A DNA stretch of 13,256 nt from a virus: UHGV virus genome UHGV-0086716; one strand, given 5' to 3'. The first letter of the stretch is position 1, and the number at the start of each line of letters is the position of its first letter. Below are positions 9,582-12,603 of this stretch, piece by piece. The notes below the pieces were generated by a model. That model did no database searches. It saw only the letters and a list, made by a program, of their open reading frames with translations, and was not told the DNA's origin. Made by a program: the position numbers and the translations under genes.

Positions 9582-9707
9582 TTATTTACGGCGTTTGTCG
9601 CCAGTAAAAAATAATTCGACATCCTTCAGTGTGTGGATAATTCGCATAATGCCGATTGCTATAAGCACGGAGATAATCAGAATTACCCATGAAAGAAATA
9701 TGCTCAT
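9582..9707 (-). CDS. Small hydrophobic peptide (41 aa), single predicted transmembrane helix with basic C-terminus
   Basis: Not in the ORF track (below its size cut-off). ATG at 9707 with AGGAG 7 nt upstream and ATGA overlap with the upstream stop. Hand translation: MSIFLSWVILIISVLIAIGIMRIIHTLKDVELFFTGDKRRK. AT-rich relative to neighbours. Confidence 0.5.
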   Translation of the reverse strand: MSIFLSWVILIISVLIAIGIMRIIHTLKDVELFFTGDKRRK

Positions 9708-9946
9708 GCGGCTACTCCTGTGAAGTAAGGCTCGACAATTTCACCTTCAAACAGTTCTGTCATAATCGACTTTAATTCTTCCAGCGCTTCACGGTCATCG
9801 CTGCCCAGCGCGCAGTTATACAGTCCCATAATTGCGCCGCGCAGTGAGTTACGAAGGTTTTCATCCTTAGTTACGCCCCGGTTTGCAAGTTCGAAGTGGT
9901 AACGCTGCAACGCGTTATTAATAAGTATTTTGTAGGCTTCGATCAT
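9704..9946 (-). CDS. Hypothetical protein (80 aa)
   Basis: ATG at 9946 with AGGA upstream; protein-like composition. Confidence 0.55.
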   Translation of the reverse strand: MIEAYKILINNALQRYHFELANRGVTKDENLRNSLRGAIMGLYNCALGSDDREALEELKSIMTELFEGEIVEPYFTGVAA

Positions 9947-9964
9947 GACTGAATCCTTTATTTA

Positions 9965-10300
9965 TCAGTGCTTGCTTCCCGGATATTGAAAACGCAGGCC
10001 GTTGATTAATCTGTCTGCCGTTCTTAAGGCTTCAAAAAATGTGAAGTCCTGTCCGAAGTAATCATCTCCGCGAGTCAGAGTAAAATTAAATCGGCCAGTA
10101 ACAGGGCTGCGAAAACTTTTGTGAATAACGATGCCAGTGTCGCCAATCGTCCAGGTGTGCTTGCCAGTTTGTTTTACCGGGTGACCGTCTGGTGTGGCGT
10201 GGATTTCAGTGGTTACGGTCGCGCTATTTTTGCGGAAGTTCTGGCGTGCAACGTGGCGTTCTGCGTTGTTATTAATGCGTGCATTTCGTTGTTGCTTCAT
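9965..10300 (-). CDS. Hypothetical protein (111 aa)
   Basis: ATG at 10300; operon strand; basic N-terminus; no recognised motif. Confidence 0.55.
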   Translation of the reverse strand: MKQQRNARINNNAERHVARQNFRKNSATVTTEIHATPDGHPVKQTGKHTWTIGDTGIVIHKSFRSPVTGRFNFTLTRGDDYFGQDFTFFEALRTADRLINGLRFQYPGSKH

Positions 10301-10571: not shown

Positions 10572-11096
10572 TTACTGGTTGCCTCCACTGTATTGGTGTT
10601 GCTCCAGTTTTGACTTTCTTCCTGTGTAAACCCGCTTTTCATTGATGGTCTGGCAGTCTTCTTTGTTTGCCGGGGAAAACTTTCTTTTCTGTCGGTCGTA
10701 CGTCCAGTAGCTTTTCCAGTTGTGCCATTCTGGCGGCTCGCATTCTGGTAATTCGTCAGCCAGCTTGTCCCACTCTCTGGCGTTAAACCACCATACGCCA
10801 TCCGAATTTTCGTCCTCAGGGTTTGAACGGGTCTTGTGTCCAGGCATCTGATTTCGCTGAAGCGCCACGCGCAATGCAGCTTTTGTCAACCCGATATAGG
10901 CCGCCCCTTTTTCAAGTGAGCAAAGTCCGGCTACCGGGCCATCCAGTCGCAAGGTTGCCCCTTTTTTGTAGGTGCGTTTTTTCTTTTCCTCTTGGTGTTC
11001 ATCGTCGTTTGCCGCACCAACGGATTCGGTGATGTCGCTACTTCCGTGGGGTTGCTGGGTGTCAGATAACTCTTTATCGGCAATGAAGTCCCGCAT
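10572..11096 (-). CDS. Cox-like early regulator/excisionase with N- and C-terminal extensions (174 aa)
   Basis: First gene of the leftward operon, divergent from the repressor gene; AAGAGG 7 nt upstream of ATG at 11096. Central segment AAYIGLTKAALRVALQRNQMP...GVWWFNAREWDKL resembles the P2 Cox HTH core as I recall it. Confidence 0.55.
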   Translation of the reverse strand: MRDFIADKELSDTQQPHGSSDITESVGAANDDEHQEEKKKRTYKKGATLRLDGPVAGLCSLEKGAAYIGLTKAALRVALQRNQMPGHKTRSNPEDENSDGVWWFNAREWDKLADELPECEPPEWHNWKSYWTYDRQKRKFSPANKEDCQTINEKRVYTGRKSKLEQHQYSGGNQ

Positions 11097-11155
11097 TTGT
11101 TATCCTCTTGTGTTGGTGCGCTTGTCGCGCATTATGAAGGTTTGTTTTGGTTTAT

Positions 11156-11179
11156 AAAGATACTCATACGAGTATCTTT
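11156..11179. promoter_or_regulatory. Perfect 10-4-10 palindrome in the divergent switch region (candidate operator)
   Basis: AAAGATACTC-atac-GAGTATCTTT, perfect dyad, 21 nt upstream of the repressor ATG and within the 103-bp interval between the divergent starts. Confidence 0.55.
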
Positions 11180-11199
11180 TGCGAGAGGTTAATACTCAA

Positions 11200-11541
11200 A
11201 TGGTTATCTTGTCAATAGACTATGCAAAAAAGCTACGTCAAATACGCAAGGCTGAAGGGCTAACGCAAAAGGAATTTGCGGATATTACGGGGTTGTCTTT
11301 AGCTGCCATAAGGAACTATGAATCAGGGCAAAAAAGCGCCAGAGCCAAAATTGTTGAGGCGGTTCTCCAGGTTGATCGATTTGAAAAATACATGATGTGG
11401 CTAATAAAAGATAAGACAATGCCTGTTGCCGGTCAGATAGCTCCGGCTCTCTCTCTTGATGGCTCCATTCAGTCGGAGGACGATCAGGATTCAATCCCAG
11501 CCACCCAAAAATCATCCCGATCAGGCCGCAATGCTGGCTAA
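11200..11541 (+). CDS. Immunity repressor, P2 C-like (HTH), 113 aa
   Basis: Motifs YESG, FEKYMMW and GQIAPAL match P2 repressor C as I recall it; HTH (LTQKEFADITGLSLAAIRNYESG). ATG at 11200 with GAGAGG upstream preferred over the track's TTG at 11179. Immediately upstream of int, as in P2. Confidence 0.8.
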   Translation: MVILSIDYAKKLRQIRKAEGLTQKEFADITGLSLAAIRNYESGQKSARAKIVEAVLQVDRFEKYMMWLIKDKTMPVAGQIAPALSLDGSIQSEDDQDSIPATQKSSRSGRNAG

Positions 11542-11610: not shown

Positions 11611-12603
11611 ATGTCGATTAAGCAACTCAAAGACGGGCGTTATAAGGTTGATGTAAGGCCGCAAGGGGCGGAAGGAAAGCGGATCCGTAAGATTTTTACC
11701 CTGAAGTCAAAGGCACAGGAGTTTGAAAGGTATGTTTTGCAGAATTTCCACGATAAACCGTGGCAGGCCAAGCCAGCTGATCAGCGTCGGTTATCCGAAC
11801 TGATAGATGCCTGGTGGGTGCTTGATGGTCGGAATCAGCCTTACGGGGATACTTACAGGGTCAGGCTGGAAAAAATAAACCGTGAGATGAGGGACCCCCG
11901 CGCCAGTGAGATGACGCGAAAGTTTATGCTCGGGTATCGTTCAGATAAATTACAGGCCGGATTAATGCCCTCCAGTGTTAATCGTGATTTGTGCGCCTTG
12001 TCTGCAATGTTTACCGCGCTGATTGATGCGGAGGTTTTCCATAATGAAAACCCGGTGCGTGGAATACGTAAGCTCAAGGTCAGGAATACAGAAATGGCCT
12101 TTCTTTCAGATGATGAGATTGATCGGCTCCTTGAGCGACTCGAGGGTGATGCGCGTCGCGTTGCTGTTCTGTGTCTTTCCACTGGCGCAAGGTGGGGGGA
12201 AGCGGCTGGTTTGCGTGGTGAGCATATCGTTGGTAACCGCGTAATGTTCTTTAACACAAAGAATGGAAAATCCCGCGCAGTTCCTGTTTCTGATACGGTG
12301 CTTTCGTTGATAAAAACCCGAAAAACTGGGCTATTGTACCAGGCTGATTACATCCGTTTTCGGGAGATCCTTCAGGAGGTGAAGCCGGACTTGCCGAAAG
12401 GGCAGGCCACCCATGTCATGCGTCATACATTCGCTACACATTTCATGATGAATGGCGGAAATATCGTTACGCTACAACGAATCCTGGGCCATGCCACGAT
12501 TCAACAAACGATGACGTATGCGCATTTTTCGCCGGACTTTTTACAGGATGCAATCAGCTTTAATCCGCTGGCTGAAAGTGTCCATAAACTGTCCATCGAT
12601 TAG
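11611..12603 (+). CDS. int: Tyrosine integrase, P2 Int-like (330 aa)
   Basis: GGAGGGG RBS 6 nt upstream. Catalytic-region pattern LCLSTGARWGEAA, HVMRHTFATHFMMNGGNIVTLQRILGH, TMTYAHF (R...HxxR...Y). Last phage gene before host DNA. Confidence 0.92.
   Translation: MSIKQLKDGRYKVDVRPQGAEGKRIRKIFTLKSKAQEFERYVLQNFHDKPWQAKPADQRRLSELIDAWWVLDGRNQPYGDTYRVRLEKINREMRDPRASEMTRKFMLGYRSDKLQAGLMPSSVNRDLCALSAMFTALIDAEVFHNENPVRGIRKLKVRNTEMAFLSDDEIDRLLERLEGDARRVAVLCLSTGARWGEAAGLRGEHIVGNRVMFFNTKNGKSRAVPVSDTVLSLIKTRKTGLLYQADYIRFREILQEVKPDLPKGQATHVMRHTFATHFMMNGGNIVTLQRILGHATIQQTMTYAHFSPDFLQDAISFNPLAESVHKLSID

Follow-up and report, generated by a model that had tools for sequence, protein, structure and literature searches.

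The immunity repressor C of phage P2 (2XCJ) is a symmetric dimer with a geometry like that of repressors that bind palindromes (PMC2995052), whereas the operators of C-type repressors have been described as non-palindromic direct repeats (PMC2995052, PMC4752584), and the reading of direct repeats by a symmetric C dimer is still called puzzling (PMC4752584). In the P2 record, the -35 of the promoter Pe is annotated on the strand opposite the first C codons, and it is followed by operator O1 in the promoter spacer, the -10, operator O2 just downstream, and the promoter Pc near cox; the operators are 8-bp repeats, GTTTAGAT, which stand 22 bp apart and have no inverted partner. The characterized repressor closest to the one considered here is that of Wφ (immunity class III), where the promoter TTGACA-17-TATATT has its -10 flanked by two copies of TATTGGTGAC, at a spacing of 34 bp, and where these half-sites have likewise been described as non-palindromic direct repeats. 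A further relative, the ΦECO5 prophage of Escherichia coli UTI89, was placed in a tentative immunity class IX by Nilsson and Haggård-Ljungquist in 2011, in a paper that did not analyze its operators (PMC3448106).

Here we describe a switch region with a C-type repressor in a P2-like prophage, the virus genome UHGV-0086716, of which the whole stretch of 13,256 nucleotides that was analyzed is referred to as the window. The spacer between its cox-like and repressor genes contains a perfect palindrome, which very probably is the promoter-distal and stronger operator, O2, of the C repressor, and through which Pe would be shut off. Read in this way, the locus would have a two-site operator in the style of P2 and Wφ, with the difference that the distal repeat, O2, is a complete dyad.

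Genes and promoters of the switch

The repressor gene (11200-11541, plus strand) encodes a C-type immunity repressor of 113 amino acids with an HTH_3 domain, whose recognition helix, SLAAIRNYESGQ, lies at about residues 33-44. Its best match among solved structures is P2 C (2xcj/2l49; E = 2e-13, residues 9-90), which bears out a preliminary description of this DNA that had called the repressor C-like, and it matches phrog_147 with E = 4.8e-29. Compared with phage records, it shows 90% identity with repressors from three E. coli P2-like prophages, 48% with Wφ C, and 35% with P2 C; relative to P2 C, it is extended by 3 residues at the N terminus and its tail is longer. The C.AhdI controller protein also shows weak similarity to the window C (E = 0.006).

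On the other side of the spacer, the first gene of the early operon (10572-11096, minus strand) encodes a Cox-like protein of 174 amino acids, which is roughly double the size of Cox in P2 or in Wφ (90 amino acids in the latter), and whose resemblance to the Cox domain is confined to residues 58-129. It scores 25.3 bits against Pfam Phage_Cox, below the cut-off of 27.5, and BLASTP gave a weak match to P2 Cox (E = 0.044) and none to Wφ Cox. The protein belongs to a PHROG family of its own, phrog_23196, annotated as a 'transcriptional regulator', and its homologs are annotated in RefSeq as 'Cox family DNA-binding protein'. A tyrosine integrase of 330 amino acids (11611-12603, plus strand), 53% identical to P2 Int, is encoded downstream of C as in P2, giving the gene order cox ← → C-int, the same as in P2. 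Judged by the homology results for C and the integrase, the switch is of the P2 type rather than the 186 type. Past cox, the early operon encodes DUF4761 and DUF4754 proteins (9704-10300), as it does in the UTI89 and ST131 prophages, and in both of these strains the prophage adjoins dmsA.

The genes are divergent, yet by homology with P2 their promoters would face each other. The predicted Pe -35, TTGACA (11215..11210, minus strand), lies inside codons 4-6 of C, and TTGACA is found near the C start in 72 distinct C-family switch regions. It is followed, after an 18-nt spacer, by a predicted -10, TAACCT (11191..11186, minus strand), which overlaps the C Shine-Dalgarno sequence on the other strand; an alternative -10, TATTAA (11194..11189, minus strand), would have a 15-nt spacer. 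The TTGACA-18-TAACCT pair is the best promoter candidate on the minus strand, with a borderline score of 12.0 against a shuffle 95th percentile of 12.3, and many relatives have TATCCT, TATATT, or TAAAAT at the homologous -10, again with an 18-nt spacer. Along the minus strand, the window therefore reads TTGACA, AGATAACCATTTGAGTAT, TAACCT, CCTCTCGC, and then the palindrome, and the palindrome would extend over roughly +1 to +24 of the transcript predicted for Pe. Another minus-strand candidate from a consensus scan, TTTATA-16-CATAAT, was rejected on the ground that its -10 is not conserved in relatives.

In the case of Pc, the highest-scoring candidates on the plus strand fall short of the shuffle median, and none of them is convincing. 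Among these, TTTATA-16-TATCTT, inside the palindrome, was rejected both for its score and for its absence from the sister immunity types considered below. A weak candidate, offered as a conjecture, pairs TTGGTG (11113-11118) with GAAGGT (11136-11141) across 17 nt on the plus strand; it scores poorly and would give a transcript overlap of ~30 nt, as in P2.

The palindrome, its second copy, and the cox-side spacer

The spacer occupies 11097-11199 (103 bp), between the minus-strand cox-like ORF and the plus-strand repressor ORF. The perfect 10-4-10 inverted repeat that had been claimed for it is confirmed at 11156-11179, where it reads AAAGATACTC-ATAC-GAGTATCTTT and is made up of two inverted half-sites, AAGATAMYC, with its end 20 nt from the repressor ATG. 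When the spacer was resampled with a first-order Markov model, a perfect repeat whose arms were 10 or longer and whose loop was 12 or shorter arose in 0.055% of resamplings (p ~5e-4), and in the whole 13-kb window 0.16 such repeats are expected and two were seen, the second being at 735-759. The palindrome is real and non-random. Imperfect palindromes can be turned into perfect ones by template switching, and the palindrome could on this account be a functionless product of chance or of such a mechanism, for example a quasi-palindrome perfected in this manner; against so low a chance probability, the conservation of the palindrome in 284 complete E. coli genomes, and the recurrence of a dyad-plus-half-site architecture with unrelated sequences in other immunity types, this explanation is scarcely credible.

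A role of the palindrome as a terminator was rejected, as intrinsic terminator prediction gave none in 10900-11400 and no run of T follows the stem. Elsewhere in the window, the G+C-rich perfect inverted repeats CGGGGCATAAA-AAA-TTTATGCCCCG (735-759) and AAACGCCC-GGAACA-GGGCGTTT (1189-1210) look like intrinsic terminators, possibly bidirectional ones.

The preliminary description had treated the palindrome as a single operator, but a second, imperfect copy is present at 11189-11210, 32 bp away. This degenerate copy, TTAATACTCAAATGGTTATCTT, referred to as O1, lies in the Pe spacer, overlaps the ATG and the first codons of C, and has the position of the annotated P2 O1. The core returned by a repeat finder, ATACTCAAATGGTTATCTT (11192-11210), matches the palindrome at 15 of 19 positions, 32 bp rightward. 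On both strands of the 13-kb window, O1 is the sole other site within 7 mismatches in 22 of the palindrome core, and its local shuffle probability is 0.005. Its strong half-site, GGTTATCTT (11202-11210), which is AAGATAACC on the minus strand, abuts the Pe -35, and exact matches to the half-site variants occur three times in the 13-kb window, namely as the two arms of the palindrome and as the right half of O1. Two half-sites in the same orientation, GAGTATCTT (11170-11178) and GGTTATCTT, form a direct repeat 32 bp apart that flanks the predicted Pe -10, in keeping with P2-type switches, where two directly repeated half-sites stand 2 to 3 helical turns from each other around the -10 or the -35 of Pe. 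Among relatives of the window's immunity type, O1 is invariant, and its halves (AAGATAACC and GAGTAT) match two variants of the palindrome arm, which suggests that the C protein tolerates M and Y at the inner half-site positions. Outside the spacer, in the N-terminal codons of cox, AGATAACTC (11064-11072) has one mismatch to the half-site and is conserved in all relatives; it was considered and rejected as a third operator, since it is a lone half-site without a partner and its conservation may be due to coding.

An explanation at the level of RNA has also to be considered, in which the palindrome would be a stem-loop at the 5' terminus of the Pe transcript or a hairpin in the Pc leader, affecting stability, translation, or interference between the convergent transcripts, and would not be an operator. 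Indeed, either strand can fold into a hairpin of 10 bp (-11.3 and -11.8 kcal/mol, with z = -3.5 and -5.7), which the predicted Pe transcript would carry at its extreme 5' end. However, a hairpin does not account for a further half-site in O1, a site that does not itself fold (z ~0), nor for the fixed distance of 32-33 bp in three immunity types, and a search for Rfam matches returned none at E values up to 1. Further evidence on this point comes from the relatives and is taken up with them.

The cox-side half of the spacer (11097-11155) is common to all three immunity types and contains the cox Shine-Dalgarno sequence (about 11100-11108, minus strand). Directly left of the palindrome are tandem 10-bp units, GGTTTGTTTT/GGTTTATAAA (11139-11158), of which three of the relatives (L161, L017, and L040) have three copies. 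Their phasing of one helical turn is like that of Cox/Apl sites, and we conjecture on this basis that they could be Cox boxes. Further left, before the cox Shine-Dalgarno sequence is reached, lies a small 5-5-5 inverted repeat, TGCGC-TTGTC-GCGCA (11117-11131), which is kept in relatives with other arms or registers, such as GGTACG-TTTGT-CGTGCC (L151) and AGGTGC-N7-GCACCT (L127). This conserved repeat was missed when the palindrome was described as the only strong symmetry element of the region, and it could be bound by a protein or form a hairpin in the leader of Pe. The two ribosome-binding regions, AGAGGATAA for cox and AGAGGTTAA for C, are near-mirror images on opposite strands (11098-11112 with 11180-11195), and as a result the plus-strand spacer folds with its ends paired (-34.3 kcal/mol, z = -5.6); this pairing of the ends probably reflects no more than the similarity between the two Shine-Dalgarno contexts.

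Immunity types and variation of the palindrome

The comparison set was assembled from viral contigs scanned for the conserved cox N-terminus and from fetched E. coli prophages. On one backbone, three immunity types can be distinguished. They share cox, int, the half of the spacer next to cox, and the C-terminal tail of C; what sets them apart is the HTH domain of C, with which the palindrome varies in parallel. The shared parts of the backbone reassort freely, and variants of the cox-side spacer combine with all three cassettes. The exchangeable cassette, at about 11155-11430, takes in O2, the core of Pe including O1, and the beginning of C; its left edge coincides with the left edge of the palindrome and its right edge falls near codon 77 of C, and identity to the UTI89 prophage is 42-70% within it and 80-97% on both sides. 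Cassette swaps, involving at least three versions, are seen at loci L125, L126, L143, L145, and L157.

In type (i), that of the window, the recognition helix SLAAIRNYESGQ goes with an O2 of the form AAAGATAMYC-N4-GRKTATCTTT and the O1 half-site AAGATAACC. In type (ii), represented by ΦECO5 of UTI89, the helix is SVGTIGNYESGY, O2 is TCTTCACCA-TG-TGGTGAAGA, and O1 is GTTCACCA, with the half-site CTTCACC, and in type (iii), found at L143, L157, and L145, the helix is PVNTQRYYETGR, O2 is GTGTCG-TAATCT-CGACAT, and O1 is GTGTCG. A pattern common to the three types is one copy of the half-site next to the -35 and a dyad of it 32-33 bp further downstream; the half-site centers are 11-13 bp apart, a distance compatible with adjacent major grooves. 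As a change in the HTH domain of C is accompanied by a change in the palindrome, with Cox and the remainder of the spacer unaltered, the palindrome would be the operator of the repressor; the assignment of the palindrome to the repressor in the preliminary description is in this respect very probable.

The same exchange bears on the possibility that the palindrome is a site for the Cox-like protein, or for a host factor such as IHF, and not for C. The palindrome does lie within the switch region, which is where P2 Cox acts (PMC3448106), but Cox and the cox-side spacer are unchanged where the palindrome has been replaced along with the HTH domain of C. In addition, the known Cox/Apl sites, as described in PMC7498355, are direct repeats one helical turn apart, a description that the tandem GGTTTGTTTT units fit better than the palindrome does. 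We consider a Cox or host-factor site very unlikely.

Related switch regions are present in 366 of 5,426 complete E. coli genomes (~7%), including UTI89 and ST131 strains, and 284 of the 5,426 have the type (i) cassette, which no genome has twice. E. coli STEC2018-607 has type (i) and type (ii) cassettes at different loci, a co-residence that would be as expected for heteroimmune phages, and one genome has two type (ii) places, so that exclusion is not absolute. On contig NZ_BBMY01000003.1 of Escherichia albertii NBRC 107761, two C-family loci (L062 and L105) lie ~10 kb apart; their repressors are of different immunity types, one being 90% identical to the window C and the other 35%.

The window type is represented by 11 distinct variants of O2, in all of which the outer 7 bp of each arm are invariant, with flanks that drift; the inner two positions switch on both arms together, from ACTC/GAGT to AACC/GGTT. 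Across the variants, 91.7% of cells are complementary and 3 of the 12 dyad positions have changed on both sides; the covariation score for these 11 variants is 0.18, compared with 0.10 in shuffles, of which 1 in 500 reached the observed score. In some lineages, the bases of the 'loop' have themselves become complementary, and L019 has a full palindrome of 24 bp. Imperfect variants (AATC/GGTT and GATTAT) occur as well, indicating that perfect symmetry is favored and not obligatory. Residue 36 of the recognition helix (A or T) follows the inner-arm variants imperfectly; a strict one-to-one covariation of this helix-3 residue with the inner arm was rejected, as L016, L017, and L040 combine A36 with AATC/GGTT.

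Across the wider C family, an inverted repeat with a score of at least 8 is present just past the -10 in 43% of 72 distinct Pe regions, compared with 1.3% of shuffled ones, and by a hand count about one-third of the Pe regions outside the window's own clade keep an inverted repeat. The family includes several loci that have a palindromic unit at both sites, among them L108 with CCTATATAGG twice, 34 bp apart, L079 with GGTTCCTTATAAGGAACC, and L064 with a perfect 20-bp dyad. Other members, of which L020 and L022 are close relatives, have direct repeats of 19-22 bp in place of dyads, showing that dyad symmetry is not required by the family.

In Wφ (L030, 1340-1510), the mapped O2 half-site lies inside TCAAAAGGT-N12-ACCTTTTGA, an inverted repeat with 9-bp arms that is kept in L069 to L072, and in P2 (L031, 1380-1500), TTTAGTGC-N10-GCACTAAA, with 8-bp arms, is found just beyond O2.

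Several of these observations would suit a hairpin. Both arms change together in the relatives, many members of the family have an inverted repeat in this place, the recurrent AATC/GGTT variant would form a U.G wobble in the plus-strand RNA, and the arms of the Wφ repeat, TCAAAAGGT/ACCTTTTGA, differ from the mapped half-site, as in P2 the repeat near O2 is not the half-site. The same AATC/GGTT variant would, however, be a C.A mismatch in the Pe transcript, and a hairpin explains neither the invariance of the outer 7 bp of the arms amid drifting flanks nor the exchange of the palindrome along with the HTH domain. A function at the RNA level instead of an operator is in our view improbable, with a secondary role of this kind being possible beside the proposed one as O2.

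Proposed operation and comparison with known switches

From the homology of C, the positions of the sites, the dyad and its second copy, and the joint variation of site and HTH domain, we infer the binding, stoichiometry, and cooperativity of C, the start points of the promoters, and autoregulation as follows. Pe would fire leftward from its -35, TTGACA (11215..11210), within the first C codons, and one symmetric C dimer would occupy the dyad O2 over the transcription start, where each of its recognition helices would read an AAGATAMYC half-site, the two half-site centers being ~13 bp apart. A second C dimer would bind O1 in the promoter spacer, where only the half-site beside the -35 is well kept, and since 32 bp amounts to three helical turns, both dimers would lie on one face of the DNA, where they could cooperate and bend it. 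The bound C dimers would occlude the -10 and the start site, so that cox and the early genes would be turned off and immunity would result. High C would probably lower its own synthesis as well, because the Pc transcript must read through O2 and O1. The dyad might additionally act as a 5' hairpin on the early transcript.

A broader proposal, which we put forward tentatively, is that C-family repressors may be general binders of dyad sites, and that the 'non-palindromic direct repeats' of P2 may be the well-conserved half of each dimer site, with the lineage of the window having kept both halves at O2 and exchanging O2, O1, and the HTH domain as one cassette. If C-family repressors do bind dyads in general, a natural symmetric C-DNA complex could settle the puzzle of the direct repeats. 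The arrangement of a distal dyad and a proximal lone half-site in three types supports one dimer per repeat, and the relatives of the window would be convenient substrates for footprinting or cocrystallization. The limits of the cassette (~11155-11430) help to predict superinfection immunity, and the cassettes could yield orthogonal repressor-operator pairs.

Among known switches, the lambdoid one, with CI and Cro, three tandem 17-bp dyad operators used by both repressors, and divergent promoters, differs from that of the window, where two sites only are present, the predicted -35 is inside the repressor gene, and the second regulator is Cox-like and not Cro-like. Phage 186 has the switch of a P2-like phage with face-to-face promoters, as would be the case here, and its CI binds inverted repeats, but 186 CI is a protein of ~190 amino acids with a separate oligomerization domain that uses distal sites, in a switch that has cII (PMC1904263), and the 113-amino acid window C is unrelated to it; 186 CI is not among the structure matches listed for C, and apart from O1 and O2 the 13 kb contain no site within 7 mismatches in 22 of the operator core. 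A closer parallel for the arrangement of the sites is C.Esp1396I of a restriction-modification system, cited as structurally similar to P2 C (PMC2995052), of which one HTH dimer binds each palindromic site and two sites form a direct repeat with cooperating dimers. This is an analogy and not membership, as C.Esp1396I is not a phage immunity repressor and its sites are 15 bp apart.

P2 and the window share the repressor family, an O1 in the Pe spacer, an O2 after the -10, and a -35 that in the window is predicted to lie over the C start. The view in the preliminary description that the architecture may differ from that of P2 is not supported in general: direct half-sites flank the predicted -10 as they do in P2, and the difference is the narrower one that O2 is a full dyad. 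Its further view that immunity specificity may differ from that of P2 agrees with the half-sites, since AAGATAMYC is unrelated to GTTTAGAT of P2 and equally to TATTGGTGAC of Wφ, and the window would on this evidence have a specificity of its own. The Wφ switch is like that of the window in its -35 TTGACA at the C start, in its gene order cox ← → C-int, and in having two repeats around the Pe -10 some three helical turns from each other (34 bp, compared with 32 bp in the window), and differs in its shorter and barely similar Cox, and in half-sites described as non-palindromic direct repeats, where the O2 of the window is a perfect half-site dyad. The non-palindromic character reported for the described classes is absent from the window and from its two sister types, all of which have a dyad O2, and non-palindromic repeats are on this comparison a descriptive trait of the characterized members and not a mechanistic requirement.

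The immunity type of the window, so far without experimental characterization, is sister to 'class IX'. The ΦECO5 prophage and the window have the backbone described above in common, and the ΦECO5 C is 67% identical overall to the window C, with VSVGTIGNYESGY in the recognition helix in place of LSLAAIRNYESGQ in the window. As in the window, ΦECO5 combines a dyad O2 with a half-site O1 at 32 bp.
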